A stretch of DNA of 39,565 nt from a virus (IMGVR_UViG_3300009181_000155:1-39565), one strand, 5' to 3'; counted from the stretch's first letter, positions 3,334 to 33,405 are shown. Notes: generated by a model not told the origin, from the letters alone. Numbers and translations are program-made.

Positions 3334-3571
3334 GTCCATCGTAGCTTTCGTCGGCGCGGCCCTCCTTCCTGTACTGGGGTACTTCTTGAAAACTGTCATC
3401 GAAGATGTCAAAGAGCTACGGCATGATCTAGCAGAATTCAAGGCCGATGTCCCAAAGGTGTATACTCCCAAAACAGAGTTTGACCGGGACTTTAATCGGA
3501 TCATGGAGCGCTTTGATCGCTTAGACCAGAAGCTTGACAGTGTTATCAATACTCGACGCAAGGAAGACTGA
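3323..3571 (+). CDS. Small membrane protein (N-terminal TM plus coiled coil), possibly holin-like
   Basis: Hydrophobic IVAFVGAALLPVLGYFL followed by a charged heptad region. Confidence 0.65.
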   Translation: MSLESIVAFVGAALLPVLGYFLKTVIEDVKELRHDLAEFKADVPKVYTPKTEFDRDFNRIMERFDRLDQKLDSVINTRRKED

Positions 3572-3572
3572 C

Positions 3573-4067
3573 ATGCCTTCAACCAGCAAAAAACAGCATA
3601 ACTTCATGGAAGCTATTGCTCATTCTCCCGCCTTTGCTAGGAAGGTTGGTGTTCCTCAATCTGTAGGCCGGGAGTTTAGCATTGCTGACAAAGGCCGTAA
3701 ATTTGCTAAAGGTGGTGATATGGCTACTAAAGGTATGAATATGGGCGGCATGGCTAAAGGCGGCATGTCCATGAAAATGGGTAGTACCCGGAAAATGGCC
3801 GAGGGCGGCATGATGGATAAAGCCCAAGACAAAGCCATGATTAAAAAAGCATTTAAACAGCACGATATGCAAGAGCATATGGGCGGTAAGGGCACTACCT
3901 TAAAGCTAGCCAAAGGCGGTATGCACACCATGCCTAATGGAAAAATGATGAAGAATTCAGCCATGAAAATGGCGTCGGGTGGTTTCACCAAAGAAGCCGA
4001 TGGGATTGCTCGTCAAGGTAAGACACAAGCAACGCAGATTAAAATGAAGCGCGGCGGCGGCTGCTAA
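3573..4067 (+). CDS. Basic Met/Lys/Gly-rich putative internal head protein with xAxGG repeats
   Basis: Start corrected to ATG 3573 (SD AAGGA); FAKGG, MAKGG, MAEGG, LAKGG, MASGG, MKRGG; possible internal start at 3720. Confidence 0.75.
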   Translation: MPSTSKKQHNFMEAIAHSPAFARKVGVPQSVGREFSIADKGRKFAKGGDMATKGMNMGGMAKGGMSMKMGSTRKMAEGGMMDKAQDKAMIKKAFKQHDMQEHMGGKGTTLKLAKGGMHTMPNGKMMKNSAMKMASGGFTKEADGIARQGKTQATQIKMKRGGGC

Positions 4068-4075
4068 GGACTATC

Positions 4076-5437
4076 ATGGCAAAACCTGTAAATGCAATGA
4101 CGGGGGATGCCCCGGACGGTCAAAATCCGGATAAGAAGTATGTCCCCAAAGCTGCGGAAATGAGGTTTAAATACGCGCCTCCACCGCCTCCTAAGCCAAA
4201 TCCAAAGGATGAGGGCATCTTTACAGAAGAGATGTTACGTCGGTCTGGTGGCAAGATGAAAGAACCGCCATATGACCCGGAAGGGAAGAAGCGTGGTGGC
4301 TCTATCAAGAAACGTCGCTTTGATGAAGGCGGTGAAGTAGAAGATAAAGCCGCTGGCCTTAAAGCCTCAAAGGGTGAAGATGTAGGCTTCTTTAAACGCT
4401 TGATGATGGGCAACATTGATCAGCCCGGATCTGAGGCGTATGAAAAGTTTGGCGCTGGTCGAGGCAAAGCCGCTAGGGAAGCCGAGGTTGAAACGGCTCG
4501 AGAAAGCGGGCGAACTGCTGAGCGATATAAACCTGCTGCCGTTGAGTCTGAAAAGCCTGTAGCGCCTGTAGCAAGCAAACCAGACAAGTATTCGGATTTT
4601 GGAGACAACGGTGACGTAGGTACTATTGAGTACAGTCCTGTCAATAAACCCACTGTTAAGCCAACTGTTCGACCGACTATCTCCTCGTCGGATAGGCCAA
4701 TGCCTCCCGTTAGCGCGGGAAACCCTCGTGATGCCGAAAAAGGCATGAGCCGTGGAAGGCGAGACACCGATACGCGGAACGCAGAACAAGGCATGAGTCG
4801 CGGCATGAGGGGTGAAGGCCCGCCATCTGCTTCTCGGGATTACAAAGCTGAAGAAAAGCAACGACAAGACGCAGAAGCGGATTACAAACGGATCACTAAG
4901 CCTGGAAGAGATGCTATTGAGGGCGTCTATCCTGAAGAGTTGTTGATTCCCGGTGGCAAAGCAGCCAAGTATGGTTTAAATGCATTAAAAGGTGCAGCCA
5001 AACCTGTTGGTTCCACCAGTCGCGCTCTTGCTGAATATGAGACGCCAATTACCTTTCTAGGGAAGGGCGCACAAAAGAACGTCACTCCAATGGAGCGACT
5101 GGCTACTGATCGAGCCAAGCGTTTGACCTATGACGAAGCGCAAGGCATAGCATCTAATGCTACACCTCGCGTTGGCGGGCCTAAAGCTCAAGCCGAGAGA
5201 GAAGTTGCAGAGACTATTGCAAGGCTGAAGCAGTCTAAGTCTGGCGGGTCTTCCGGTGCCCCTGTGCGGCAGCGGTCTCCAAAAGACATGACAAGCTTTA
5301 AATCAGCAGATGAGTTAGGGATTGATTTTAAACGTGGAGGCAACATTAAGCGTTATGCCTCTGGTGGTTCAGTATCAGCGTCTAGCCGTGGTGACGGATG
5401 CGCTCAACGTGGCAAAACTCGTGGAACAATGAGGTAA
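4076..5437 (+). CDS. Low-complexity putative internal virion protein
   Basis: 453 aa, disordered composition; KKRGG/FDEGG and FKRGG/YASGG pairs; C-terminal SSRGDGCAQRGKTRGTMR. Confidence 0.8.
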   Translation: MAKPVNAMTGDAPDGQNPDKKYVPKAAEMRFKYAPPPPPKPNPKDEGIFTEEMLRRSGGKMKEPPYDPEGKKRGGSIKKRRFDEGGEVEDKAAGLKASKGEDVGFFKRLMMGNIDQPGSEAYEKFGAGRGKAAREAEVETARESGRTAERYKPAAVESEKPVAPVASKPDKYSDFGDNGDVGTIEYSPVNKPTVKPTVRPTISSSDRPMPPVSAGNPRDAEKGMSRGRRDTDTRNAEQGMSRGMRGEGPPSASRDYKAEEKQRQDAEADYKRITKPGRDAIEGVYPEELLIPGGKAAKYGLNALKGAAKPVGSTSRALAEYETPITFLGKGAQKNVTPMERLATDRAKRLTYDEAQGIASNATPRVGGPKAQAEREVAETIARLKQSKSGGSSGAPVRQRSPKDMTSFKSADELGIDFKRGGNIKRYASGGSVSASSRGDGCAQRGKTRGTMR

Positions 5438-6530
5438 TCATGGCTAAGATGAGACGTTTTGACAATGGTGGTGGAGTCGGGCTTGATTTTGGCCCATCTC
5501 CGTCATATCAAACCCCGGCAGATCATTTCACCAATCTTCCGTCTGGAAGCCCGCAGCAGTTCAATGCTATGCGTAGTGCAATTGGCTTGTCGCCTATGGA
5601 GGATTCCAACGACAATGATGCCAATATACAAAAAGCAAAAGCTATGATGGGTTCTATTGTTGGTTTAACACCCAACGATAACAACTACTCATTGCAAGAT
5701 GCTATTTCTCAACTAAGGGGTCAGTACTCTGCTCCGGCTCAGCCAATTGTACAAGCCCCCCCGCCTCCTATAGCCTCCAGTCCGGAGCCGGACTTTATGG
5801 CCGGTTTTTCTCCGTCAATGAGGGCTCGTTTTGCGGCAAATCAAGCCCGCAGCAAACCAGAGGGGCCGGATCAAGAAAGAGCTTTGATGGCTCGTTTTGA
5901 GGCAAATCAAGCGAGAGCCAATGCCAAGCGGGATTTGGGCATGAAGAGCGGTGGTGGCGTTAAGGCCAAAGGCAGTAAGGTCAAGAAGTTTGCTGAAGGT
6001 GGTGAAATTGATAACGATTTTGGAGCCATGAACGAAGGCCCAGCTGGTGATGACTCTTACACTCCAGCCCCCAAAGCAGAACCCAAGACACGCGGAGAAG
6101 CCTTCCGCGCTGCTCGTGCTGCCGGTGACAAGACGTTTGAGTTTGAGGGCAAGAAATACACCACTGAACTAGCCAAGCCAAAATCTGCCGCTAAGGAAGA
6201 AGCTCCCAAATTTGCTTCTGCTAAAAGCCCTGGCATCATGCAACGGATGCGTGACGCAGATGCGGCGATGGTGAAGTCTGCACAAGCAAAAACTAGGCAA
6301 GGTAACGCTGATCTTGGCAGTGCCAATGCAGGGCCGTCAGGAACTGGCGGCAGGCTTACCGGCGACCGCATGTCCCCGGCGTATGGTCAAGGGCGGGTAA
6401 ATCCTGACACCTTGCTTCCCATGAAAAAAGGCGGCTCTGTCAAAAAATTTGCTTCCGGTGGTTCAGTTTCTAGTCGGGCTGATGGTTGCGCTCAGCGGGG
6501 CAAGACCCGTGGAACAATGAGGTAATCATG
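5381..6530 (+). repeat. Direct repeat of a gene-end/gene-start junction (5381-5442 and 6469-6530)
   Basis: Exact 23-nt CGTGGAACAATGAGGTAATCATG at 5420-5442 and 6508-6530 within about 60 nt of mostly synonymously diverged similarity. Confidence 0.9.
5440..6525 (+). CDS. Low-complexity putative internal virion protein with the same C-terminal tag
   Basis: Start corrected to ATG 5440 (SD GAGGT); FDNGG, MKSGG, FAEGG, MKKGG, FASGG; C-terminal SSRADGCAQRGKTRGTMR. Confidence 0.8.
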   Translation: MAKMRRFDNGGGVGLDFGPSPSYQTPADHFTNLPSGSPQQFNAMRSAIGLSPMEDSNDNDANIQKAKAMMGSIVGLTPNDNNYSLQDAISQLRGQYSAPAQPIVQAPPPPIASSPEPDFMAGFSPSMRARFAANQARSKPEGPDQERALMARFEANQARANAKRDLGMKSGGGVKAKGSKVKKFAEGGEIDNDFGAMNEGPAGDDSYTPAPKAEPKTRGEAFRAARAAGDKTFEFEGKKYTTELAKPKSAAKEEAPKFASAKSPGIMQRMRDADAAMVKSAQAKTRQGNADLGSANAGPSGTGGRLTGDRMSPAYGQGRVNPDTLLPMKKGGSVKKFASGGSVSSRADGCAQRGKTRGTMR

Positions 6531-14133: not shown

Positions 14134-16041
14134 ATGCCGTTGAAGAAGATCACCCTCAAGCCCGGTGTAAACAGAGAAAACACGCGCTATACCAATGAAG
14201 GCGGCTGGTACGATTGCGACAAGATTCGGTTTCGTCAAGGCACTCCAGAGAAGATCGGTGGCTGGTCACCTGTAACGCCTAGCGCTACGTACCTGGGTAC
14301 TGCCCGGTCTTTGTGGCCCTGGACGACCAACAGTTCGTTTCCTTACCTTGGTGTCGGTACTAACCTCAAGTACTACATTGAATCGGGTTCTGTTTACAAC
14401 GACATCACTCCTATCCGAGCAACAACCGCTGCCGGTGCTGTTACGTTTGCAGCAACAAATGGGTCGGCAACTATTACGGTCACTAACGCAGCATTTGGTT
14501 CTAGTGCTGGCGACTTTGTGACTTTCTCTGGTGCTGTCAGTCTTGGTGGCAACATCACTGCCGCTGTTCTGAATCAAAACTACCAGATAGCCACAGTCAT
14601 AAGCGTAAACTCTTACACCATTACAGCCACAGCAACAGCAAGTGCTTCTGATAGCGGGAATGGCGGTGGCTCGACTGTTGGCGCGTATGAAGTTCCAGTA
14701 GGGTATGCGATCAACGTATCTCTTTACGGTTGGGGTGCGGGAACTTGGGGTGGTGGGGGATGGGGCACAGGTACTACATCCGCAAGCCAAATTCGCATTT
14801 GGAACGCGCAAAACTTTGGTCAAGACTTGATCTTTGGGCCTAAAGGTGGACTGCTGTACTACTGGAGCACTTCTGGTTCTCCGCTGACCTCCCGTGGGGT
14901 TGCTCTGTCTTCGTTAGCTGGGGCGTCTGATACCCCGCTATTCCAAAATTTACTGCTTGTGTCTGACACATCTAGGTTTGTGTTTGCCTTTGGTACTAAT
15001 GATTACGGTAGCGTTGAACTAGACCCGATGCTCATCCGTTGGTCTGACCAAGAAGACGCAGTCAATTGGACACCCGCAGCAACCAACCAAGCGGGTAGCC
15101 TTCGTCTTTCTCATGGCTCATCTATTGTTGCGGTTGCTCAGACCCGGCAGGAAATTCTTGTTTGGACTGATACAGCGCTGTACTCATTGCAGTACGTTGG
15201 GACGCCCATTGTTTGGAGTTCTACCCTTCTTTCTGACAACGTCTCAATCCTGAGTGACCGGGCATGGTCAACTGCTTCTGGCAAGACGTATTGGATGGGG
15301 ATAGACAAGTTCTATGTTTACGAGGGTGCGACAAGTACGCTAGTTTGTGACCTTCGGCAGTACATCTTTGATGACATTCCGGGCATCAACAACGATCAAA
15401 ACGCGCAGATATTTTCTTCCACGGTAGAAAAGTTTAACGAAGTGTGGTGGTTCTACTGTTCAGCCGGTAGTACCACAATTGACAGGTATGTAATCTTTAA
15501 CTATACCGAAAGACTCTGGTACTACGGCACTATGGTTCGTACTGCCTGGATAGACGCAAGTGTTCTTAACCATTTGCCAATTGCCGCCGATGATACAAAC
15601 AAGAAACTGATGTATCAAGAAACCGGGACTGATGACCTCTCAACTAACACGGCAGTGGCAATCACCTCATACATCACTTCTGCTGAATTTGATTTAGACG
15701 ACGGCAACAACTTTTCATTTATCTGGCGTATGTTGCCCGACATTACGTTTCGGGGTTCTTCTGCTGCAAGCCCTGCGGCGACCATGTACCTGCTGCCGTT
15801 GTCCAATTCAGGTTCTGGATACAACAACAATACCTCTACAAACAGCAATCAGTCTGTGGCTGACCAAAGCTCAGCGGGAGTTACTAGGACTGGCACTTAC
15901 CCTGTTGAACAGTTTACCGGTCAGGTTTACACGCGAGTCCGTGGACGGCAGTTGTCAATCAAAGTAGAATCGACTGCACTAGGGGTGCAATGGCAGCTTG
16001 GCGCACCTAGACTTGACATCAGACCTGATGGACGAAGATGA
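14134..16041 (+). CDS. Putative tail nozzle / hub protein (P22 gp10 or T7 gp12 equivalent)
   Basis: 635 aa, beta-propeller-like, IRWSDQED..AGSLRL..EVWWFY..RGRQ..LG motifs; lies just before ejection-type genes. Confidence 0.65.
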   Translation: MPLKKITLKPGVNRENTRYTNEGGWYDCDKIRFRQGTPEKIGGWSPVTPSATYLGTARSLWPWTTNSSFPYLGVGTNLKYYIESGSVYNDITPIRATTAAGAVTFAATNGSATITVTNAAFGSSAGDFVTFSGAVSLGGNITAAVLNQNYQIATVISVNSYTITATATASASDSGNGGGSTVGAYEVPVGYAINVSLYGWGAGTWGGGGWGTGTTSASQIRIWNAQNFGQDLIFGPKGGLLYYWSTSGSPLTSRGVALSSLAGASDTPLFQNLLLVSDTSRFVFAFGTNDYGSVELDPMLIRWSDQEDAVNWTPAATNQAGSLRLSHGSSIVAVAQTRQEILVWTDTALYSLQYVGTPIVWSSTLLSDNVSILSDRAWSTASGKTYWMGIDKFYVYEGATSTLVCDLRQYIFDDIPGINNDQNAQIFSSTVEKFNEVWWFYCSAGSTTIDRYVIFNYTERLWYYGTMVRTAWIDASVLNHLPIAADDTNKKLMYQETGTDDLSTNTAVAITSYITSAEFDLDDGNNFSFIWRMLPDITFRGSSAASPAATMYLLPLSNSGSGYNNNTSTNSNQSVADQSSAGVTRTGTYPVEQFTGQVYTRVRGRQLSIKVESTALGVQWQLGAPRLDIRPDGRR

Positions 16042-16566: not shown

Positions 16567-19311
16567 ATGGCAACAAAACCACCTGAAGGCTGGTCTACTG
16601 GCCCTGCTGGAATACAACTTGGTCAAGGTGAAGTTGGTACGGTTGATGTTCCTTGGTATCTTCAAGGGACTGGCCCCGCTACCTATACTGCTGGGGAAGG
16701 GCAAGATCAAACTACTGGAATCTTAGGCCCAGAAACCATACCGCAGGATGTTGCTTGGAGGCAGGTTGCCCCTAATAAATATCAGACCCAACGCTTTGAC
16801 GATACCGGGTTAATTGACAAGCCGTTAGATGTAGACTTGACAGATCCTAATGAATGGATTGCTCAGTTAATTATTGGCGCCGGTATGGCGGGGGTGCTTG
16901 GGCCGTTAGCTGGTAATTTGGGTGCTGCGGTTGCTCCTGGGTTGAGCACTACCGCACAGATGGCAATAGGCCAAGGTCTTGTCAATGCTGGTAAGACGTT
17001 TGGTCTAGGCGGGAATTTAGGGGATATAGCCAAAGCGGGTGTTTTAGGTGGAGCCACGTCGTATGCTACTTCGGCTATTGGTGATATTTTACCTAAAAAT
17101 GTTGCTAATACAGGCATAACGTCTTTAGATACAGCTTTAAACAAAGGCATTCAATCTGCTGCTGGTAGTGGCGTAACGTCCCTTTTAACTGGCAATAAGA
17201 ACGCCCTTCAAGATGCTTTGATGGCTGGTGCCAGTGCTGCTGCCGGGTCTGGTGCAAACAGCGCAATGGAATCAACCTTTGGAAACACAGGGTTGCCCGC
17301 CCCGGCTGCAAACATTTTAAGCTCAGCCGCATTGGCAGCAGTTATGGGCAAAGACCCTGGCAAATATGCTTTGAAATCTGCATTGGGTGAGATTACAGGG
17401 GCTATTAAAGGATCTGCTCCTTCAGGAAATTCTGGAGCAACAGGGTCAACAGGTGCGCGTGGCTTAGCAAATTTAAATGAAGAGTATGACGATAATAGTT
17501 CTTTGTTTTCAAATAGCAAAGGAGAGCTAGCTTCACTTGATACAAGCGGACAACGCTATGTCCCCGGCTCAAATCCATTGCTTCCTCAAAATGTAGCCGC
17601 AGCACAAAATGCAGCAGCAGAGCAAGAACAATTACTTGCTTTTGCCAATCAAGCAAATGGGCAATTTGGTTTAACTCCCCAGCAAGAAGAAGCTTTAAAT
17701 GCTTATACCAAAGATTTAATAAACCTAGGACTTACAAAAGATTCTGCTGCCGGAATAACATCTGTTCCTGATGAAATCCAAGCGTTAATACAGGCTGGGC
17801 TTACCCCTGATTCTGCTGCTGCTGTGGCTGGGCCAGAGGGTATTGAAGCATTAGCAAAAGATTTCCCCCCTGAGTCTTTTAATCAAACTCCATCCGGGGC
17901 CGCACCATCTACTTCTTTAGCGGAAGATAACCTTTTTGACTTAGGGGAAAATTTTGGCACATTTGCCGAACGTCCCGAAACATCCGCTGATACAGATGCT
18001 GCACCGCAACAAGTTGATATTACAGGCCACAACTTTGATTTAGAACTAATGCGTTTTCTTGAGGCCAATGGCCTTACGGCTGATGAAGCGCAGAAGGTTC
18101 TTATTACCGGCAAAGACAAAACTGCCGGAACAGATTACAACTCGTTTTACGAAACCCCTGGAAGTTCATTAACCCCCAAAGTTGTTGTTCAAGGACAAAC
18201 GCCACCTAAAGACACTGCGGTTGATGATTTAATGGCAATGTTAAATCAATATGATCCGCAGCTTGATAACGCTCAAAGAGTTGAAATAACCGGTAAAGCG
18301 TCTCCTATTGATGAACTAGCCGCCTTGTTAAGTCCTAATGACACAACGCAAAGAGTTGATATAACTGGAACTGCCCCTAAAACATTGCCAATAGATTCTG
18401 ATTTAAATTTAGACAGGTACTACCCAGGCGATACGCAAACAGAAGCGCCCTCGACCTCGGATAAGCTAACAGATGATTTGCTCCAAAAAGTTGAAATAAC
18501 TGGCAAAATTCCTCCTATTGATGAGTTATTGGCGTTGTTAAATCCTAGTGATACAACGCAAAGGGTAGATATAACAGGTACAACCCCCCTTGATTACTCT
18601 TCTTTAGAATACCCTCTAGGGCCAGAAGATGAAACGCCAAAAGTTGTAATAGAAGGCAAAACACCACCAATCCCATTTGTTGACTATTCTGACTTAAACA
18701 ACATTCCTACAGAAATAGAAGATGAAACGCCGCAAGTTGTAATAGAAGGCAAAACACCACCGATTCCATTTTTTGACTATTCTGTTTTAGACAACATTCC
18801 TACAGAAACAGAAGATGGGACGCCGCAAGTTGTAATAAAAGGGCAAACACCACCGACTCCGTTTATTGATTATTCTGATTTAGACAATATCCCCAAAGAA
18901 GAACTTATTCCAGACGCCCAACAAGTTGTAATTAGGGATAAGCTTGTAGACGAGCCTCCATTTGATGGTCATGTAATGCCTCCTGTTGAGCAACCTGTTC
19001 AGGTGCCTGTTGCTCCAGACAAGCCAATTGTTGATCCCATTAGACCGCCAATTAAGCCTATAGTTGACCCAATACGGCCAATAATTAAGCCTATAGTTGA
19101 CCCTAAAGTCACCACGACATCGGGGGGGAACATTACAATTCCCGGAATGACTCAGCAGTTGCATCAAGAGCTTATGCAGCTTCCAGATTTTGATTTGGAA
19201 AAACTGTTAAGCCCATCGCTTTATGCTTACCACCAAGCGCAGAAGCGTAAACAAACATCTCAAGAAGACCAAATGGCGGCGCTTCTTAACCAGCTTGGAT
19301 ACAGGAGTTAA
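16567..19311 (+). CDS. Putative ejection protein with Gly/Ala-rich hydrophobic N-terminal part and an acidic repeat region with TonB-box-like motifs
   Basis: 914-aa ORF after the nozzle gene; hydrophobic segment from about aa 97; 11 (Q/P)-(Q/K/R)-V-x-(I/V)-x-G-type motifs. Confidence 0.75.
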   Translation: MATKPPEGWSTGPAGIQLGQGEVGTVDVPWYLQGTGPATYTAGEGQDQTTGILGPETIPQDVAWRQVAPNKYQTQRFDDTGLIDKPLDVDLTDPNEWIAQLIIGAGMAGVLGPLAGNLGAAVAPGLSTTAQMAIGQGLVNAGKTFGLGGNLGDIAKAGVLGGATSYATSAIGDILPKNVANTGITSLDTALNKGIQSAAGSGVTSLLTGNKNALQDALMAGASAAAGSGANSAMESTFGNTGLPAPAANILSSAALAAVMGKDPGKYALKSALGEITGAIKGSAPSGNSGATGSTGARGLANLNEEYDDNSSLFSNSKGELASLDTSGQRYVPGSNPLLPQNVAAAQNAAAEQEQLLAFANQANGQFGLTPQQEEALNAYTKDLINLGLTKDSAAGITSVPDEIQALIQAGLTPDSAAAVAGPEGIEALAKDFPPESFNQTPSGAAPSTSLAEDNLFDLGENFGTFAERPETSADTDAAPQQVDITGHNFDLELMRFLEANGLTADEAQKVLITGKDKTAGTDYNSFYETPGSSLTPKVVVQGQTPPKDTAVDDLMAMLNQYDPQLDNAQRVEITGKASPIDELAALLSPNDTTQRVDITGTAPKTLPIDSDLNLDRYYPGDTQTEAPSTSDKLTDDLLQKVEITGKIPPIDELLALLNPSDTTQRVDITGTTPLDYSSLEYPLGPEDETPKVVIEGKTPPIPFVDYSDLNNIPTEIEDETPQVVIEGKTPPIPFFDYSVLDNIPTETEDGTPQVVIKGQTPPTPFIDYSDLDNIPKEELIPDAQQVVIRDKLVDEPPFDGHVMPPVEQPVQVPVAPDKPIVDPIRPPIKPIVDPIRPIIKPIVDPKVTTTSGGNITIPGMTQQLHQELMQLPDFDLEKLLSPSLYAYHQAQKRKQTSQEDQMAALLNQLGYRS
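18007..19107 (+). repeat. Nested coding repeats (210-nt, 93-nt and 33-nt periods)
   Basis: 18274/18484 and 18349/18559 (210 nt); 18637/18730/18823 (93 nt); KPIVDP x3 at 19021, 19054, 19087. Confidence 0.9.
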
Positions 19312-23700: not shown

Positions 23701-26700
23701 ATGCCTTATGATGTTGAATTGCCCAATGGGGATATCATTGAGGTGCCTGATAACGTAAGTCAGGCAGAAGCAAAACAACGGATCTATAAGGCGTATCCTC
23801 AATTTGCTCCCAAACAAAGCACAGAGCGCACCTTTGGAGAGGCCATTACCGATCCTTTGCTAGGGATAGCAAAAGGTGTAGGGGCTATGGCTCAGCTTCC
23901 CGGTCAGTTGTACGGGTTAGCCACTGGAGACTTTGACACCGCCGCCATGAGAGGGCCGGAAAGGTTTCAGGAGTACGCGAAATCCCTTCAGTCTGAAGGT
24001 TTACACGTTAGAGAAGCCTTGCGGGATAAGGCTATTTCGGAAGCAGAAAAACAGGGCATTGCGTCTGCGTTTTACACAGCAATCGTCCAGACCATCAAAG
24101 ACCCGGCTTTAGTCTCTACGTTCATTACGGAAACAGTTCCGGAAATGATCCCCATGTTTTTGACTGGTGGGGCAAGTAAATTACTTACCACCGGGGCCAG
24201 TCAAGTAGCCAAGTACGGCGCTAAAGAGGCAGCAGAAAACGCAGCCAGAGTTGCCGCTAGGACTGCCATAGGCACAGGAGCCGTACAGCAAGGCGCAGAC
24301 ATTGGTACTGATACCTACAAGGAAGCACTAGACCTTGCTCGGGCTCAGAACCCTAAAATGTCTCCACAAGAGATTGAAGATCTTGCTTTAAGCAAAGCCA
24401 GGGCATCAGCAGTAGAGTCCGGACTTGTTTCTTTATTGGCTCAGAAGTTACCCGGCTCGAAGGCCATTGAACGACGCATGGCGGGCCTGCCAGGAGAAGG
24501 AAGAATCCGTTCTGGCTTGGGTGAGGCTGCTAGTGAAATGCTTGAAGAGGGTGGCGGCAAGTTTGCCTCCAATGTAAACCTTCAACAGATTGACCCTGAA
24601 AGGTCTTTGACAACCGGCGTAGGATCTGCGGCTGGTTTGGGTGCAATTGGCGGTGGAATCTTGGGTGCAGCCATAGGGCGTGGCGCTCCAGTTCCTGAAT
24701 TGATGCCGGGGCAGAACCGAGGGGAAACCCTTGCTCAATCTGCTGAAAGGCTACAAAGGGAGATTAGGGATAACGAAAAGCTACTTCAGCCAACGGCTGC
24801 TGAAAAAGCCATTTCTGCTATTACCCAAGCTCCAATCGATCCGGTTATCGATCCGTTCCTAAAAGATTTAAACGCCAACCTTGCTCTAGAAGGAAATTTA
24901 AATGCTGGAACAACTAACGCTGCCCCAGGTGGAGAAGGCGCTCTCTTGGCTGGCCTCCCCGGTGCAGGAGGCGCCGCCGCAGGAGTTGCAGCCACTCAAC
25001 CAGATGGAGTGGTTCTTATTGGGCAGGATGTTGCAGGCACTGCTGGAGGAGAAGGAGCACCACCTGATTCAGTAGAACCTGTAATTCTGCAAAATAGAAA
25101 TAGGGCCACCCCTGCTTCTATTGCACAGATGCAAGATATCTCTGCCCGTCCGGATTACACAAGGCTGGGCTTTAGCCGGGACATCACCACTGGAGCCCCG
25201 GTTGTGTTTGGTGGGAATATCAACCCCCAGCAATTAGGCAAAGTGGATGTGGTTGCTGCTGGCAACAAAAAGATTCCCGTTCAATATGCGGTAATGGATG
25301 TAAACAATGTAATTGCATCCAATAACGCAGACGGATCTATTGTTCCTGAATACAGCACAGCAGTTGATAAGACCAGGGTTGTAGGCGGTAACGCCCGTAT
25401 TGCCGGATTACAGAACGCATACAGGAACAACACTGCCGCCGCCTATTCAACTGAATTGCTTGGTGACAATCTCCACGGCATTAGTCCGGATGTAATTAAA
25501 GGCATTAAAAATCCTGTTCTTGTCAGGGTTATGCCCGCATCAGAAGTCACTAAGAACATTGGTGACATAACCAACACCACTGGAACATTAGATCTATCTA
25601 CCGTTGACCAAGCAAAGAACGATGCCAAACGGGTAGATGTAAACGACATTAGTTACAACGAAGATGGGGATGTAACGGACTATTCCGTTATGCAGTTCAT
25701 CAGGTCTATGCCCGCAAACGAGCATGGAAAACTGATTGATGACGATGGACAACCAACCACTATAGCCAGAGCTAGGCTTCATGCTGCCATCTTTGCCCAG
25801 GCATACCAGAACGACAAGTTACTACGCTTGTACTCTCAAGCGGTAGACCCTGATGCAAAGAATGTTTTAAACGCTCTATCTCAAGCCGCTCCGCAGATGG
25901 CGCGGCTAGAGGGTGCCGGGGCGCTGGACTTCCGTAATGATGTTGTAGCCGCCGCTGAACAAGTGGTCACCGCCAAAAAGGCGGGGATCAGTACGCCTGA
26001 CATGGTTGCCCAGGTCACCATTGGCGAAGATCCTAATGTTCATAACATCCTTACCGGATTTGCTAACAACATTAGATCTGCCAAAAGAATGGCGAGGATC
26101 TTAAAGGAAGCAGCAAACTATGCTTACCACCATGCCAACACCGAAGAACAGGATATGTTCGGTGAGAGCATTCCTAAGCCCAGCAAAGAAGACATAACCC
26201 AAGGTATTAAAGAAGGTAAGGAGTACCCAAAACTTTCTCGGGCACAAAAAGGACAGGCAGAACTATTTAAATCTGATGCTGAAAAGCAGCAAACGGAAGC
26301 CAAAGAAAAGTTTAAACAACAAGCTGTAGCACAAGCGCCGGAAGTTATTGCTGAAAAGAAAGAGCAGTTTAAGAACATCCTGACAAAGATCCTGAGCAAC
26401 ATGGGTCTTAAAGATGTTGCCGTTAAGCTGATGAATGAGGTTGAATCTGTAGAAGCCGAGGGTTCCTATGCAGAAAATCTCATCAAGATTGCTTTAGACG
26501 CAGCCTCTCCTGTAAGGACGTTGAGGCATGAAGCTATCCATGCTTTGAAAGAACTTGGTTTCTTTAGTGATAACCAATGGAATGTTCTTCTTAAACAAGC
26601 AAAAGATGTTTGGGTAGACAAGTACCTGAAGAATAGGGATGTTGGTGGCGGGCCTTTGCAAGAAGGAAAGCCATCTAGGTACGATGCCTACATGAAAAAT

Positions 26701-29700
26701 CCTGCGTTTAAAGCAGATCCTAATGCCATCCTTGAAGAAGCCATTGCTGATGCGTTTGGTGATTTTGATGCCACCAAGTCTCCCCCAGGAATGATCCAGG
26801 CCATCCTTAAACGGATGAGGGATTTCTTTGCTGGACTCAAGAGGGCTTTAAATGGTGCAGGGTTCTACACTTCAGACCAAGCTATTGAGCAACTGTTTGG
26901 CAAGATTGAGCGGGGTGAGCTAAAGGCTGGTGAGGCTAAGGCTGGCGGGAAAAAACTAAGCCTTCGTACAGAGCAGGGGAAACCGGCTGCCATTGGGCCG
27001 AAGATGGACGGTAAGTTTCTTGAAAGAATTGAAAACATTCGACGCCAAATTGGTGATGCGTATGTTTCAGGTGAAATTTCATTTGATGAATATCAGCAAA
27101 GGTTTGCCAAAACAAATGATGATTACGTTTCCGCTTTAAGTTTACAAAAGAAGTTTGATGAATCAGTTGGCGCGACAAGCCTTGAAGAGGTATTTCCTGG
27201 GTTTACTTACATCCCAATTGGAACAAAAGTCTTAGCAGTTGGCAGGAGTGGTACAGAGCCTGCCAGAGGAACTGTTATAGATAGCGTTGACCTCCGAATT
27301 GGGCCACGCGCATACAAGGTTCCTGTTGTTGATTTCGGAGACGGGAAACGTCGCAAGATTGGTTTAGGCGATATAAAGGAAGTTTTCCTTCCTAGACCGG
27401 CCAAGTTAAGCCGTCGCGCCCCCAACACTAAAGAGTTTAAACAGTGGTTTGGTGATAGCAAAGTAGTAGATGAGAACGGTGAGCCGTTAGTTGTTTATCA
27501 TGGGACAGCGCAATCTTTGATTGGGGGGGCATTTAGCAGCAAACACGCTAAGTCTGAAGGGTTGGCGTTCTACTTCTCTCATTCTCCGTTGATGAAAAAC
27601 CCAGCGGAAAACGCCAACGACTATGCCAAAAATCGTTTGGGAGAAGAACAACAAGTAATGCCTGTTTACTTAAGTATTGAAAATCCACTTGTTGTAGGTT
27701 TTACAGAGCCCATGCCAACTGGCGATGCGGCTATCGAAAAGTGGCTGGATCGGATGGGGAAGTTCAACCGCTCAATTGATATGAGCAAAGAACAATACTT
27801 TCAGAAAGCAATTAGAGAAGCAAAGAAATCCGGGCATGATGGGGTGATTGTTCGCAACATAGAAGATGTAGCCAATGATGTTGGCAAAATGTTTACAGAA
27901 GAAACAGATGTTTACATTGCATTTAAACCAAACCAAATCAAATCTGCCATTGGAAACATAGGCACATACTCCAAAGAAAACCCTGACATCAGGTATAGCT
28001 TACGCATTACAAAAGACAATCAAATACCTGACCTTGGTAAAGATGTAACTGTTGCCAAAGTTGGTAAATACTTTGATGATGAAGTTAAGAAAGCCTTTGG
28101 GTCTGCCCTTGATTACAACGACAAGGTTGCTTTTGACCGGGCTGTAGATACTGCTACCCAAGAAGTATTGCAGCAAATAACGCAAGTAAGGTCTGGTCTT
28201 GATTGGTATGAAGAAGACATAAAGACGGCGTTTAAAGATACCACCAAAATCATTCCTAGATTAAAGAAACCCGAAAGTCGGATACTTTTTACTGTAATGG
28301 CTGGCATCATGTCGCCAAATACCAATGCTAGGGAAAATTGGTATATTGCAGCTAAAGCATTTGAGCACTATGTTAATACAAAAGAAATACCAGGCATAAA
28401 CCCCGAAAACGGGATGTTATGGATGGGTGGGCAACAATCTGCCAACAAAAAGTTGCAGCTTGATTTCTTAAACAATATGGTTAAGTCCCTCAAAGAAGGC
28501 CCTGCCATTAAATGGCTAATGAGTGACCATACCGTAAAAGAGATAAATGAATATAGGCAAAAGTATGGCAACATTAAAAGCGGCATTGAGGGGAAAGCCA
28601 CTGATGTAAAGCCGGGGCTATATGCCTTTGGGCCAAAGGTCGGCCCATTTGTATCTAATTTAAATGGTATCCATGATGTAACAGTGGACAAATGGATGAC
28701 CCGCACCTTTAACCGGTACTTTGGTACTATGGTTAATGGAGAGGGAAAAATCATTGACGCCCCAACAGAACCTCAACGTAGGGCCATCAAAGAACTTGCA
28801 ATAAAGGTAGCGCAAAATGTCGGAATCAAACCGTACCAAGTCCAATCAGTCCTCTGGTTCTACGAGCAGCAACTCTTCACCAAGCTCGGAGCAGAGTCTC
28901 CCTCTTACGGGTTTAGCGATGGAGGAAGAAGATTCCTCAATGAACGAAGAGGAGAAGGCGGTACACCGGGTGTGCCAAATGCTGCTGCTCCAAATCCGAG
29001 AGCAAAGCTAAGCCTTCGTGACAAGCTGGGCCTGTATAGCGAGCTTGAGAACAAGATAGGAACTGTCGGGCCTAATCAAGCTCCTGCTGCCCAATGGAAA
29101 ACCATGATCAAAGGCATGGTACAGAAGGGCGTAAAGCCTGAAGAGATTGAATGGTCTGGTGTAAACGACTACCTTGATCTGCAAGAGGGCAAGGTGTCTA
29201 AGGCTGCGTTGCTGGAGTATTTAAAGGAGGGTGGCGTTAAGGTTGAAGAGACCACTTTAAACGCAGAAGAGGTTGAGCCATTAGATTTTGAAAAAGTTAG
29301 AGATTTTCCTGATGGTTTTGAAGAATACTATCAAGCAAATTATGAACGAGACTATGGACAATCGGACACGATTGGCATTGCTTTAGCTGATGGCGGCTGG
29401 TGGGTATATGCAGATGGCAATGAAATAAAAGCAAATTTAGAAACAAGGGAGCAGGCAGAGAGAGTAGCTACAGCATATGTCTCGTTTTACAGAAATAAAC
29501 AAGAAGGAGAAGCAAAATACAATTATGGTGAGTTAATATTGCCCGGTGGGACTAACTACCGTGAAGTGTTGTTGACGTTGCCGCTCAAGCCAATGACTGA
29601 GGCAGAGGCGCGCAAAATTTTAAAGGTTAAACCAGACGCTGTTTTGAGCCAAGCAGACATTGCTTACGCGGCTAGGAAGAATGTCAATGAGTACAAATCT

Positions 29701-32700
29701 CGCCATTGGGATCAATCTAACGTCCTAGCCCATATTCGTATCAATGACCGCGCGGATACCGATGGCAAGAAGGTGCTGTTTGTTGAAGAGGTTCAATCTG
29801 ATTGGGGGCAGCAGGGGAAGAAGGAAGGGTTTGATTCAAACATAAAGCCGGTGTCACGCAAGGATTTTGACGACTACGTCGACAAGCTGTCGGATGACTA
29901 CAAAGCTTATCTAGTGCAGTCTGGCAAAGATCGCCAGGGGGTGGAGCGGCTCGTCGACCACATGTCGTGGCCGCAGATGGCGCAAGAGTTGGGCCGGGCT
30001 GACGAGTACGCCCGTATGCGTGCCGGTCGTGACATGGACATGGCTGGCAAAACCGTCATCCCTGTTGCGCCGTTTGTGACCAAGACCGAGGGCTGGCTAA
30101 ATCTGGCGCTCAAGCGCATCATGGTTATAGCCGCTGAAGGCGGTTATGACAAGGTGGCCTTTATAAATGGCAAACAGTCTGCCAAAAGGTATAACCTTGC
30201 TACTTACATTGATACCATTGATTACGAAAAAGATGATCAAGGTACATATGAGTTTGTTGCTACAGATAAAGAAGGCAAAACAGTTTATGAAAAAGAAGAA
30301 GTTTTCTTGTCTGAAATTGAAGGACTTGTTGGAAAAGACATAGCAAAAAAGATAGAAGCTGGAGAAGGTGTAACCGGTAAACACGGGAAATACAGAGATT
30401 GGCATACTCTATATAACCTTGATTTAGAAGTTGGCGAAGGTAAAGGCATGAAGGTCTTTTATGACCAAATTGTCCCAATTGCTTTGAAGAAACTTTTAAC
30501 AAAAGTTGGTGGCAAAACATTAAAAACAGTTAAAATAGCAGAAGAAGGCGCGCTGTGGCAGTATGAATTTGGAGGAGAAGTGGAGGAATTTTTTGATACA
30601 AAAAAAGAAGCTCAAGATGCACTCCGCGCCACCGCAATAGACAATATTAGAGAATATCAAAACATTGAAAATCCATCTCAATCTGAAATAGACGAAGTAA
30701 TAGAAAATGCTGACGGTTTGGTTTACCAGCTTGGTGGTTTTAATCAACCTGGGTTTGATGTAACCCCTGAAATGAAACAGAAAATTGAAACGACTGGCTT
30801 GCCTAAATTCAGCCTTCGTAACACCTTCTCCGCGCAAATCAATGCAGCGGTTGATAGGACTACGACAGTCCGGGAAGATGAGACTTGGGGTGACCGGTAT
30901 AGTAAATGGATTGCTTCGGAGACAAGGGAAGAACTTCGTGCTGCCCTGATTAACCGATACAACAGACTTGGCGCTTATGACCGTCGCCGCGCTGACAAGA
31001 TGGGCGGGTTTGGGTTACTTGCAGATGCAAGCGCAGAAGCTGCTGCCCATATGTCTGACCTTGGATCATCGTTGACCGCAGCCATCTTTAGGCCGGGTGG
31101 TGGAGCCCCCGTTTACAAAAACGGCGTCACCATTGTTGACAACTTTGGTGGGACGATTAAAGGCCCGTTGGAAATCTTTGCCCCGCTAGAAGCCTTGAGC
31201 CAGGGCGATAAAGAGATTTACAGGTACTATCAGTTCTGGGCTGCTGTAAACATGGCTACCCGGATCATGCCATCTACCGCCAATCCAAAGGGCACAGACA
31301 TTACATTTAAACAGTCAGACATTGGGCTGGCTAATCAAATACTTGCTAGATACCCGGAGTTTGAAAACATCCAAAAGGAATGGATCAAGTACAACGACAA
31401 ACTAGCAGAATTCTTGGTAGACACTGGAGTTATCAGCAAGGACGCCAAGGATGAGTGGGTTAGGTATGGTGACTACATTCCCTTCTATCGTCAGGTAGAT
31501 GACACGGAAACCATTGGGCCTAAGCTTCTCCAGGCCATTGCCGGGGTCAAGCCCCCTAAGAAGCGCAAGGGAGGCACCGAAGCCCCACTGGCTGACTTCT
31601 TAGAAACTATCATCCGAAACACTCAGTCTTCAGTTCAGATGGGTTTAAAGAACGTAGCAGCGCAAAGGGCGGTGCTGGTTGCTATGGATTTAAACAACGC
31701 AGGACAAACGGACGTAATCGAGCCGTTAAATTTTGTGTCTGACAAGCCCGACTGTATAACCATTCTGGTTAACGGCCAACAGAAATCCTTTAGGTCTGCC
31801 GATAAGTTGTGGATCTCATCCATTACAAGTTTAAATCTGCCTGATGTACCGTTTATAGGCATTTTTACCGCCCCGGCAAACCTGCTTAGGACTTTGGTCA
31901 CCAAAGATCCTGGTTTCATGTTAGCCAACATGATGCGGGATTCAATGCAGGCGATGATTGCCTCTGAGCTAAAGACTGTAAACCCAGCCACCACCCTAGC
32001 AAACTTTGCGTCTGCCTTGGCTGGCCGGTCACCAGAGTTTGAAGCTCTGATGAATGCTGGCGTTCTTGGTGGGCATGAATACTCTAAAGATATTGTCCAC
32101 AGCGGGAAGGCTTTTGCTAAAGATCTTCGTAAAGCGGCAGGCCAAAAGACTACGGCAGAAACTCTTCTTAGCCCGGTGACTGGCTTGTGGCAGGCCCTGG
32201 AGAAGGGGGCCACCGCCTCTGATTCTGCAACTCGTCAACAGATCTATAAGGAAGTTCTGGAGAACACAAAGTCTCGTGCTTACCCTAATGGAAATCTGGC
32301 CGAAGCGATTTACAGGTCAATGGAGGTAATGAACTTCAACCGCAAGGGTAACTCTGCAATCATCCGTATTCTGACCGCCGCCATCCCATTTTTAAACGCA
32401 CGGATACAAGGCTTAGATGTTCTGTACCGTACAGGGTTTGGAATCGGCATGGACAAGAAATCTGCTGCGGCTATTCAAAAGCAGTTCTTTATCCGGGGCG
32501 CTACGATGTTTGCCCTGTCATGCATGTATTGGGCACTGACGCATGATGATGATGACTACAAAAAACAGGAACAGGAAACAAAAGACAACTACTGGCTTCT
32601 GCCTTCTTTGGGGATAAAGATACCCATCCCATTTGAAATTGGTATCTTGTTTAAAGTCATACCGGAACGGATCATGGCTGCGTCCTTTGGTACGGACACC

Positions 32701-33405
32701 GCAGGAGACTTTGCCAAATCCATGAAGCGGCAGTTGATTAACACCCTAGATATAAATTGGGGTATCCCGCAAACATTTAAACCAGCCCTAGAGGCGGTAA
32801 CAAACCACAGCTTCTTTACTGACCGTCCTATTGTTGGGCAGGGCATGGAGGGGGTTGAGCCGGGGTATCAGGCCGGGCCTAACACATCGAAGATTGCAGC
32901 AGAAATTGGCAAAGCTGCCAATCTTTCTCCGATGAAAATTGATCATCTTATCAGTGGGTACACGGGGACTATGGGCATGTACGCCTTTAATCTTTTTGAT
33001 TCCATCTTCAAGATGAACGATGACAAGACCTACGCCTCTAACCGCTTTGAGCAGACCCCTGTATTTAAACGCTTCCTGATTGATCCTAATGCGCGTGGCA
33101 CAGTCACCGCCTACTACGAGACTAAGAACGCTGCGGATTCAGTTGTCCGTACAGCCGCTCTCATGGAACGTACTATGAATTATCAGGAGTGGGGGCCGTA
33201 CTACAAGGAAAACATGAGGGCCATTGCAACCCATGAATATCTCTTGGACTTGGAAAAGACCATGAAGAGTTTTAGGGAAATGCGAGGGATGATCCAGGCC
33301 AATAAGTCTACCCCCGATGAAAAGAGGGACGCCTTAGAAAATCTTACCAAGGCTGAAAACAAGCTTACCGCTAATATTCAGACCATCAAGAAGAATATAC
33401 AGTAA
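23701..33405 (+). CDS. Giant polyvalent virion protein: DdrB-like ParB, zincin metallopeptidase, ADP-ribosyltransferase-like, HhH-glycosylase-like, unknown modules, C-terminal LPD38-like
   Basis: LQNRNR..GAPVV..GNAR..PVLVR; LRHEAIH..EEAIAD; FKQWFGDSKVVDENGEPLVVYHGT..GHDGVI..NQIKSA; WY..MSPNT..GPKV..VTVDKW; KDNYWLLP..IPIPFEIG. Confidence 0.85.
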   Translation: MPYDVELPNGDIIEVPDNVSQAEAKQRIYKAYPQFAPKQSTERTFGEAITDPLLGIAKGVGAMAQLPGQLYGLATGDFDTAAMRGPERFQEYAKSLQSEGLHVREALRDKAISEAEKQGIASAFYTAIVQTIKDPALVSTFITETVPEMIPMFLTGGASKLLTTGASQVAKYGAKEAAENAARVAARTAIGTGAVQQGADIGTDTYKEALDLARAQNPKMSPQEIEDLALSKARASAVESGLVSLLAQKLPGSKAIERRMAGLPGEGRIRSGLGEAASEMLEEGGGKFASNVNLQQIDPERSLTTGVGSAAGLGAIGGGILGAAIGRGAPVPELMPGQNRGETLAQSAERLQREIRDNEKLLQPTAAEKAISAITQAPIDPVIDPFLKDLNANLALEGNLNAGTTNAAPGGEGALLAGLPGAGGAAAGVAATQPDGVVLIGQDVAGTAGGEGAPPDSVEPVILQNRNRATPASIAQMQDISARPDYTRLGFSRDITTGAPVVFGGNINPQQLGKVDVVAAGNKKIPVQYAVMDVNNVIASNNADGSIVPEYSTAVDKTRVVGGNARIAGLQNAYRNNTAAAYSTELLGDNLHGISPDVIKGIKNPVLVRVMPASEVTKNIGDITNTTGTLDLSTVDQAKNDAKRVDVNDISYNEDGDVTDYSVMQFIRSMPANEHGKLIDDDGQPTTIARARLHAAIFAQAYQNDKLLRLYSQAVDPDAKNVLNALSQAAPQMARLEGAGALDFRNDVVAAAEQVVTAKKAGISTPDMVAQVTIGEDPNVHNILTGFANNIRSAKRMARILKEAANYAYHHANTEEQDMFGESIPKPSKEDITQGIKEGKEYPKLSRAQKGQAELFKSDAEKQQTEAKEKFKQQAVAQAPEVIAEKKEQFKNILTKILSNMGLKDVAVKLMNEVESVEAEGSYAENLIKIALDAASPVRTLRHEAIHALKELGFFSDNQWNVLLKQAKDVWVDKYLKNRDVGGGPLQEGKPSRYDAYMKNPAFKADPNAILEEAIADAFGDFDATKSPPGMIQAILKRMRDFFAGLKRALNGAGFYTSDQAIEQLFGKIERGELKAGEAKAGGKKLSLRTEQGKPAAIGPKMDGKFLERIENIRRQIGDAYVSGEISFDEYQQRFAKTNDDYVSALSLQKKFDESVGATSLEEVFPGFTYIPIGTKVLAVGRSGTEPARGTVIDSVDLRIGPRAYKVPVVDFGDGKRRKIGLGDIKEVFLPRPAKLSRRAPNTKEFKQWFGDSKVVDENGEPLVVYHGTAQSLIGGAFSSKHAKSEGLAFYFSHSPLMKNPAENANDYAKNRLGEEQQVMPVYLSIENPLVVGFTEPMPTGDAAIEKWLDRMGKFNRSIDMSKEQYFQKAIREAKKSGHDGVIVRNIEDVANDVGKMFTEETDVYIAFKPNQIKSAIGNIGTYSKENPDIRYSLRITKDNQIPDLGKDVTVAKVGKYFDDEVKKAFGSALDYNDKVAFDRAVDTATQEVLQQITQVRSGLDWYEEDIKTAFKDTTKIIPRLKKPESRILFTVMAGIMSPNTNARENWYIAAKAFEHYVNTKEIPGINPENGMLWMGGQQSANKKLQLDFLNNMVKSLKEGPAIKWLMSDHTVKEINEYRQKYGNIKSGIEGKATDVKPGLYAFGPKVGPFVSNLNGIHDVTVDKWMTRTFNRYFGTMVNGEGKIIDAPTEPQRRAIKELAIKVAQNVGIKPYQVQSVLWFYEQQLFTKLGAESPSYGFSDGGRRFLNERRGEGGTPGVPNAAAPNPRAKLSLRDKLGLYSELENKIGTVGPNQAPAAQWKTMIKGMVQKGVKPEEIEWSGVNDYLDLQEGKVSKAALLEYLKEGGVKVEETTLNAEEVEPLDFEKVRDFPDGFEEYYQANYERDYGQSDTIGIALADGGWWVYADGNEIKANLETREQAERVATAYVSFYRNKQEGEAKYNYGELILPGGTNYREVLLTLPLKPMTEAEARKILKVKPDAVLSQADIAYAARKNVNEYKSRHWDQSNVLAHIRINDRADTDGKKVLFVEEVQSDWGQQGKKEGFDSNIKPVSRKDFDDYVDKLSDDYKAYLVQSGKDRQGVERLVDHMSWPQMAQELGRADEYARMRAGRDMDMAGKTVIPVAPFVTKTEGWLNLALKRIMVIAAEGGYDKVAFINGKQSAKRYNLATYIDTIDYEKDDQGTYEFVATDKEGKTVYEKEEVFLSEIEGLVGKDIAKKIEAGEGVTGKHGKYRDWHTLYNLDLEVGEGKGMKVFYDQIVPIALKKLLTKVGGKTLKTVKIAEEGALWQYEFGGEVEEFFDTKKEAQDALRATAIDNIREYQNIENPSQSEIDEVIENADGLVYQLGGFNQPGFDVTPEMKQKIETTGLPKFSLRNTFSAQINAAVDRTTTVREDETWGDRYSKWIASETREELRAALINRYNRLGAYDRRRADKMGGFGLLADASAEAAAHMSDLGSSLTAAIFRPGGGAPVYKNGVTIVDNFGGTIKGPLEIFAPLEALSQGDKEIYRYYQFWAAVNMATRIMPSTANPKGTDITFKQSDIGLANQILARYPEFENIQKEWIKYNDKLAEFLVDTGVISKDAKDEWVRYGDYIPFYRQVDDTETIGPKLLQAIAGVKPPKKRKGGTEAPLADFLETIIRNTQSSVQMGLKNVAAQRAVLVAMDLNNAGQTDVIEPLNFVSDKPDCITILVNGQQKSFRSADKLWISSITSLNLPDVPFIGIFTAPANLLRTLVTKDPGFMLANMMRDSMQAMIASELKTVNPATTLANFASALAGRSPEFEALMNAGVLGGHEYSKDIVHSGKAFAKDLRKAAGQKTTAETLLSPVTGLWQALEKGATASDSATRQQIYKEVLENTKSRAYPNGNLAEAIYRSMEVMNFNRKGNSAIIRILTAAIPFLNARIQGLDVLYRTGFGIGMDKKSAAAIQKQFFIRGATMFALSCMYWALTHDDDDYKKQEQETKDNYWLLPSLGIKIPIPFEIGILFKVIPERIMAASFGTDTAGDFAKSMKRQLINTLDINWGIPQTFKPALEAVTNHSFFTDRPIVGQGMEGVEPGYQAGPNTSKIAAEIGKAANLSPMKIDHLISGYTGTMGMYAFNLFDSIFKMNDDKTYASNRFEQTPVFKRFLIDPNARGTVTAYYETKNAADSVVRTAALMERTMNYQEWGPYYKENMRAIATHEYLLDLEKTMKSFREMRGMIQANKSTPDEKRDALENLTKAENKLTANIQTIKKNIQ
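24902..25075 (+). CDS. Candidate overprinted 57-aa gene in the +1 frame of the giant gene
   Basis: GAAGGA SD 7 nt before ATG; MLEQLTLPQVEKALSWLASPVQEAPPQELQPLNQMEWFLLGRMLQALLEEKEHHLIQ; coincides with a Gly/Ala linker in the main frame. Confidence 0.6.
   Translation: MLEQLTLPQVEKALSWLASPVQEAPPQELQPLNQMEWFLLGRMLQALLEEKEHHLIQ
28817..29011 (+). CDS. Second candidate overprinted ORF in the +1 frame (start 28817, 28919 or 28940)
   Basis: Open +1 frame over the end of a module and its linker; AAGG and GGAGG SD-like sites; stop TAA lies in the LSLR junction codons. Confidence 0.35.
   Translation: MSESNRTKSNQSSGSTSSNSSPSSEQSLPLTGLAMEEEDSSMNEEEKAVHRVCQMLLLQIREQS

Follow-up and report, generated by a model that had tools for sequence, protein, structure and literature searches.

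The window, that is the whole stretch of viral DNA analyzed (39,565 nucleotides, IMGVR_UViG_3300009181_000155), is a complete IMG/VR entry, linear and estimated to be 63% complete as a genome. Its genes run from the major capsid gene (5-916) through adaptors, tail fibres and the tail nozzle to two small ORFs and the genes P0001 to P0004, and lysis genes follow P0004 on the opposite strand (Table 1). The nozzle shares 31 to 38% of its residues with the nozzles of cultured podophages (DSL-LC04, CRP-901 and HTVC023P/027P), pointing to distant phages of the HTVC023P/DSL-LC04/CRP-901 type, and an 'HTVC010P-like' label was unsupported. Positions 1837-2742 hold about 5.6 tandem 48-residue (144-bp) repeats, propeller-like by eye and with no family match, and an intrinsic-terminator-like hairpin lies 3' of the major capsid gene (931-960), 94% like the one found after a tRNA-like gene in G586.

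Table 1 Features of the P0001 region, in window coordinates
Feature	Position	Strand	Remarks
Tail nozzle/stabilisation protein	14134..16041	+	phrog_3287; labelled 'stabilization protein' in cultured relatives
P0001, 914 aa	16567..19311	+	first large gene of the ejection module; its place after the nozzle and two small ORFs is the slot
Gly/Ala-rich helical region	16846..17421	+	residues 94-285; 38% G+A; hydrophobic peaks at residues 98 and 242
Motif 1 QQVDITG	18007..18027	+	16.7 bits
Motif 2 QKVLITG	18091..18111	+	12.2 bits; within a low-confidence helix of the AlphaFold2 model
Motif 3 PKVVVQG	18175..18195	+	5.2 bits, weak
Motif 4 QRVEITG	18274..18294	+	19.6 bits; identical to Burkholderiales receptor boxes
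Motif 5 QRVDITG	18349..18369	+	18.4 bits
Motif 6 QKVEITG	18484..18504	+	16.7 bits
Motif 7 QRVDITG	18559..18579	+	18.4 bits
Motif 8 PKVVIEG	18637..18657	+	4.9 bits, weak; in 93-bp tandem repeat
Motif 9 PQVVIEG	18730..18750	+	6.2 bits; 93-bp tandem repeat
Motif 10 PQVVIKG	18823..18843	+	8.7 bits; 93-bp tandem repeat
Motif 11 QQVVIRD	18919..18939	+	6.9 bits
Pro-rich rod	18967..19146	+	residues 801-860; 25% Pro; 33-bp repeat
C-terminal helices	19147..19308	+	better conserved than most of the clan protein
P0002	19314..21875	+	C-terminal family matches phrog_4287; without TonB-box-like site
P0003	21886..23694	+	third module gene; no family; no TonB-box-like site of at least 8 bits
P0004, 3234-aa polyvalent protein	23701..33405	+	last in the module; ddrB-ParB, ART-PolyVal (ADP-ribosyltransferase) and LPD38 domains

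P0001 heads what appears to be a podophage ejection module, with the nozzle upstream, a gene of the phrog_4287 family adjoining and the polyvalent protein last, in agreement with the sequence-only reading, which had regarded it as a putative ejection protein. Of the 64 aligned members of the P0002 C-terminal family, 30 matched phrog_4287, a 'DNA ejection protein'. Long helices were seen in the model of a P0002 relative, for which a fold search gave no match at E<=0.001, and two P0002 alignments had no match among PDB sequences. P0001 itself had no Pfam, PHROG or PDB match (the PDB was searched with the P0001 alignment), so the ejection reading rests on gene order; fast divergence is usual for podophage ejection proteins. 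From its gene position and its Gly/Ala-rich helical region, of the outer-membrane-inserting kind seen in T7 gp14-like proteins, we infer that P0001 is probably carried in the virion and ejected into the envelope of the host. The Gly/Ala helices are its candidate membrane-inserting part; their ESM Atlas match to DUF637 at 0.87 is a lead only. The first-ejected podophage protein carries hydrophobic helices for the outer membrane, and the T7 gp14/15/16 and P22 gp7/20/16 genes are, like the P0001 module, large fast-diverging genes located after the nozzle (PMC8954989). The present module differs in having four genes, and P0001 is far longer than gp14 (~200 aa), with no sequence match to it.

Two minor features of the module may be mentioned here. 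A highly conserved domain of about 95 residues inside P0002 (20280-20573), without a PDB match, sits at the end of the slot protein in Caulobacter phage RW, indicating that this domain module is shuffled between genes. The motif [MF]xxGGx[VIA] recurs in ORFs 3534-4067, 4076-5437 and 5398-6525, the last two of which have near-identical tail ends, as well as in P0002 and P0003 (19314-23694) and close to the C-terminal end in many slot proteins; it is possibly a packaging or processing signal. P0001 has no clear copy of its [MF]xxGGx[VI] form, though P0002, P0003 and many slot proteins do.

The sequence-only reading had listed eleven TonB-box-like heptapeptides in the acidic, proline-rich half of P0001. 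All eleven were found where it had placed them, between residues 481 and 791 and 25 to 45 residues apart, and their setting is as it had described (19% D/E and 11% P over residues 471-800). Its further statement that the motif persists while many spacers are unrelated also held. Spacers 1, 2 and 5 resemble no other, but spacers 3, 4 and 6 are interrelated and spacers 8 to 10 form a recent 93-bp tandem repeat; thus, the eleven motifs are not eleven independent events. The third codon positions of the motif Thr and Gly vary while the residue is kept, and the T or G position deviates in 5 of the 11 motifs. Among the 19 window genes scored with the box matrix described below, P0001 alone carries an array; P0004 has two scattered sites of at least 8 bits.

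We then compared the motifs with the TonB boxes of outer-membrane receptors. A matrix was built from 27 non-redundant boxes at 30 receptor loci of five Burkholderiales genomes, which were picked in a scan of GTDB for holding QRVEITG. It found six sites of at least 10 bits in P0001, compared with a mean of 0.14 in 2000 shuffles (maximum 2), and 9 of the 11 motifs reached at least 6 bits, PKVVVQG and PKVVIEG falling below. When the nine xRVEITG-type boxes were removed from the matrix, P0001 still had eight sites of at least 7 bits where 1.07 would be expected (p=0.001), and all eleven motifs lay within the top 12 of 908 windows. In contrast, a matrix of 29 alpha/gamma receptor boxes from 30 loci gave no P0001 site of at least 7 bits, indicating that the array is written in one dialect. 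The motifs fit, as sequences, the receptor-box pattern (polar-polar-hydrophobic-x-hydrophobic-T/S-G/A) in its Burkholderiales form. Box variants in these receptors include QQVEITA, ARLVITG, APVVVKE and DRVDIIA. After the motif Gly the phage protein reads K/Q/T-T-P, whereas receptors read S-R/S-S-I.

DNA coding for QRVEITG was also scanned for in 2 of the 64 parts of the GTDB genomes, yielding 122 loci, 121 of them long enough for a domain scan. At 49 of the 122, among the 75 where some Pfam family was recognized, the heptapeptide lies just before a Plug domain, after a signal-peptide-like stretch, and 45 of those 49 are titled betaproteobacteria, the remaining 4 being unclassified. The other loci comprise 16 encoding a ribosome hibernation factor, 10 from other families and 46 with no family; in the hibernation factor and in two SLBB proteins, QRVEITG is an ordinary strand. 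The proposed comparison with receptor boxes supports the earlier reading, since the array reads as betaproteobacterial receptor TonB-box sequence, QRVEITG letter for letter.

P0001 and 15 homologues form a clan of 16 proteins, all of which keep 5 to 11 motifs while their spacers turn over; the array is thus conserved in homologues, one of the checks proposed for it. In the 121 motif instances of the clan the first core position is always V or I and the second always I or V, an invariance partly set by the pattern used, and G ends the motif in 91. The spacing is below 50 residues in 101 of 105 cases, with a median of 32. A profile of the repeat region run against 1.84 billion representatives retrieved five matches, namely four clan members and one unrelated low-complexity protein, and no match was found among 50,697 GenBank phages. 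At the level of sequence, the motif array is real, selected and host-like.

A self-contained fold of the repeats would have argued against TonB boxes, and no confident one was obtained. AlphaFold2, run on a shallow alignment of 16 sequences, gave a mean pLDDT of 33.6 and drew the array mostly as coil, with values below 50 over residues 141-809, such low confidence being weak evidence of disorder. Two motifs (640-645 and 665-670) were drawn as strands in this low-confidence model. The ESM Atlas pLDDT for P0001 was 0.40, and a comparison of the repeat region with the ESM Atlas gave no usable match. The array is predicted to sit in a flexible, exposed segment.

To see how the array is distributed, 211 loci were collected via P0002, the nozzle and the conserved P0002 domain, an array being defined as at least three sites of at least 8 bits with a shuffle p<0.02, and counts being dereplicated. 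Arrays were found in 6 of 90 slot proteins, two of the six belonging to the P0001 clan, compared with 0 of 127 P0002-like proteins and 0 of 195 further downstream (0/322 ejection-module neighbours; Fisher p=1e-4, with rows that are not fully independent). Elsewhere in these loci, arrays occurred in 1 of 66 nozzles, 1 of 322 other proteins and 0 of 20 proteins of uncertain slot assignment. When the array label was mapped on a quickly built P0002-family tree of 96 rows, five changes were required, each imposed by branches with good support; these changes may be gains, losses or gene swapping, and locus L497, the same contig as L013, was left unlabelled. The remaining 84 slot proteins have other low-complexity tails instead, and the module genes of cultured HTVC023P, DSL-LC04, CRP-901 and MinM2 showed no array. 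Of the syntenic proteins, which the sequence-only reading had proposed to check, a few thus carry comparable arrays written in further receptor dialects, but not the 84 of 90 or those of the four cultured phages.

The arrays outside the clan are of unequal strength. That of L013/L017, whose motif EQVTVTA lies in a tail rich in Thr, Pro and Val, exceeds its own shuffles only moderately (p 0.001-0.08, depending on the matrix), and that of L537 is marginal (p 0.017). A second clan, the P0025 family (97 matches), has a best BLAST E of 0.005 to P0001 outside the motifs, which is not significant. Its box forms include ELVVTGDR, EVVVTGNR, DTVTVTGDR and EELIVTGK, and at least two loose motifs occur in 55 of 98 proteins, compared with about 0.1 expected from shuffles. 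In this clan, 10 of 20 unique strict-core motifs have Arg at the second position past the Gly, as do 21 of 29 alpha/gamma boxes. The cultured Caulobacter phage RW has in the same slot gp66 (MK929790; L484:21082-22824), with Gly/Ala helices followed by a Pro/Thr tail bearing the weaker box-like DEIVVTP, DPVVVNP and SPVTVSP, with Pro in place of the final G/A. Scored on columns 1 to 6 of the alpha/gamma matrix, gp66 has five sites of at least 7 bits, two of them outside the tail array, against 0.8 expected (p=0.001). A 1446-residue slot protein (L545:1829-6166) contains the box-like motifs DTVTVTGNK, IDEVIIKD and IPVVVIKD interspersed among many Cys-rich, apparently disulfide-bonded modules.

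We propose that the phage would probably grab the host TonB motor during entry. More precisely, we give a probability of about 0.45 to the reading in which the P0001 tail serves for TonB-assisted pulling or tethering, as an accessory TonB-engaging part of an ejected protein. P0001 would be packaged and then ejected into the host envelope, where the Gly/Ala helices would insert in the outer membrane and leave the acidic tail in the periplasm. Each box could then pair as a beta-strand with the C-terminal domain of host TonB, as receptor boxes do in parallel with its strand beta3 (PMC11658791). Serial boxes about 32 residues apart would let TonB re-grip and pull P0001 through the tail, box after box; alternatively, they may anchor the forming conduit at the inner membrane. 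The median spacing is below the ~20 nm, or 50 residues, over which TonB was extended before release in single-molecule AFM pulling (PMC5413942), a length that reflects plug mechanics and is not a measured motor stroke, and it thus fits repeated re-gripping. The distribution speaks against the strong form of the earlier claim, TonB-powered entry as the mechanism of these phages: no array occurs in 84 of the 90 slot proteins or in the corresponding genes of the four cultured relatives. TonB engagement would be an auxiliary acquired by some lineages rather than the core motor of the family. Bolder, and only tentative, is the idea that several lineages within a large family of aquatic podophages separately copied host TonB boxes into the tail of an ejection protein, as a rack of handles no further apart than one TonB stroke, by which the proton-driven Ton motor would ratchet the conduit into the periplasm, making a host-powered entry step that the phage itself encodes.

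Known systems offer partial parallels. TonB-dependent transporters of Burkholderiales have, like P0001, the same heptapeptide in a flexible linker, but they carry a single box after a signal peptide, followed by a plug (PF07715) and a barrel, whereas P0001 has eleven internal boxes and no visible signal peptide; as it has no Plug or beta-barrel Pfam match, it was rejected as a transporter. A box of their own serves to pull pyocin S2 and colicins into the cell, and bacteriocins such as colicin M, colicins 5/10, klebicin C and pyocin S2 are foreign proteins with a box in a disordered part that TonB pulls across the outer membrane (PMC10994204, PMC9022066, PMC11658791). They have one N-terminal box and enter via a host channel, unlike the phage-encoded P0001 with its many internal boxes, in which a toxin or receptor-binding domain was not found, and P0001 was likewise rejected as a bacteriocin. 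Infection by phages T1 and phi80 needs TonB via the host receptor FhuA, with no phage-encoded box mentioned in the excerpt of PMC11658791, and TonB is nowhere named in the podophage-ejection review PMC8954989. In keeping with the claim of novelty, a search of the open-access literature at abstract level showed no phage protein described as bearing a TonB box or an array of such boxes. If binding holds, the array would represent a bacteriocin-style variant of TonB-box hijacking in phages. For the force that drives podophage ejection proteins from the head across the envelope, a TonB handle encoded by the phage would give a first immediate tie to a motor of the host. A naturally occurring series of boxes would, moreover, help in finding out whether TonB acts by repeated strokes, and the cultured phage RW makes the idea of a TonB handle testable now.

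It may be that the motif is a generic beta-strand followed by Gly, which finds its pairing partner in the phage, or in copies of itself within an oligomer (fibre-like, or as stacked rings), its likeness to TonB boxes being incidental. Scanning viral contigs for paired V[EDV][VI]TG yielded 121 stretches (110 frames examined), mostly beta-fibre repeats and off-frame low-complexity sequence, with one clan locus. Such in-frame pairs are common in unrelated viral beta-repeat proteins, and the core alone is thus not diagnostic; a 7-mer also carries little information, the residues after the Gly differ from those of receptors, and two motifs are strands in the low-confidence model. Nevertheless, the free positions follow the Burkholderiales box: of the unique clan motifs 23 of 33 have Q/E then R/K/Q ahead of the core, and so do 13 of 27 boxes from Burkholderiales, compared with 1 of 67 other-viral motifs and 0 of 29 alpha/gamma boxes. 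The receptor dialect drawn on differs between separate lineages, the spacers are irregular in length and often unrelated, and the clan flanks contain 21% D/E, 10% P and 11% beta-formers (VIFYW), as opposed to 9%, 2% and 22% in other viral VxVTG proteins. We therefore regard a generic strand as somewhat unlikely. A viral fibre repeat of the triple beta-helix or spiral type was rejected given the irregular 25-45-residue spacing and the beta-poor flanks in P0001. Viral ORFs at L382/L383:4257-7054 have about 20 copies of [DN]EVDI[TS]GQ[ST] every 15 to 17 residues, a fibre repeat or another box array.

The tail might also bind TonB without any role in entry, as a multivalent sponge that ties up TonB and so blocks TonB-dependent competitor phages, bacteriocins or receptor signalling. 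This decoy would draw on the same sequence evidence as TonB-assisted pulling; a patchy distribution with variable copy number fits an arms-race accessory, and a free pentapeptide of the TonB box keeps TonB from acting on BtuB in vivo (PMC5413942). Yet, as no signal peptide is seen in P0001, only the few virion-packed copies could act, and a regular spacing of 25 to 45 residues is needless for a sponge, which makes this role unlikely. Still less probable is a partner other than transport TonB, such as a TonB paralogue, TolA or a POTRA domain, engaged by beta-augmentation in the periplasm. Beta-augmentation is not very sequence-specific, and candidate hosts have divergent TonB_C proteins besides the standard one, both of which count for such a partner, but it is receptor boxes, the partners of TonB, that the motif matches letter for letter. 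That the array is a neutral repeat expansion of a functionless motif in a disordered linker is highly improbable: part of it is a recent tandem duplication and other slot proteins have arbitrary low-complexity tails, but the motif is kept while spacers lose all likeness, codons vary synonymously under fixed residues, and across the clan motif columns are 70% identical, against 59% for spacer columns, with the core V at 94%.

The host is likely a member of the Burkholderiales, to which only the motif dialect points, and such dialects may predict the hosts of uncultured phages. Searching 401 Burkholderiales genomes with the nozzle gave two matches, both distant. A DNA search of 401 family-level genomes returned low-complexity and terminator matches, with no spacer-like match and no host link. 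A bacterial bin, G710, includes at least four different phage contigs of the P0001 phage family (among C47, C55, C74, C81 and C84), none with an array, which is possibly a hint to the host or the result of co-binning.
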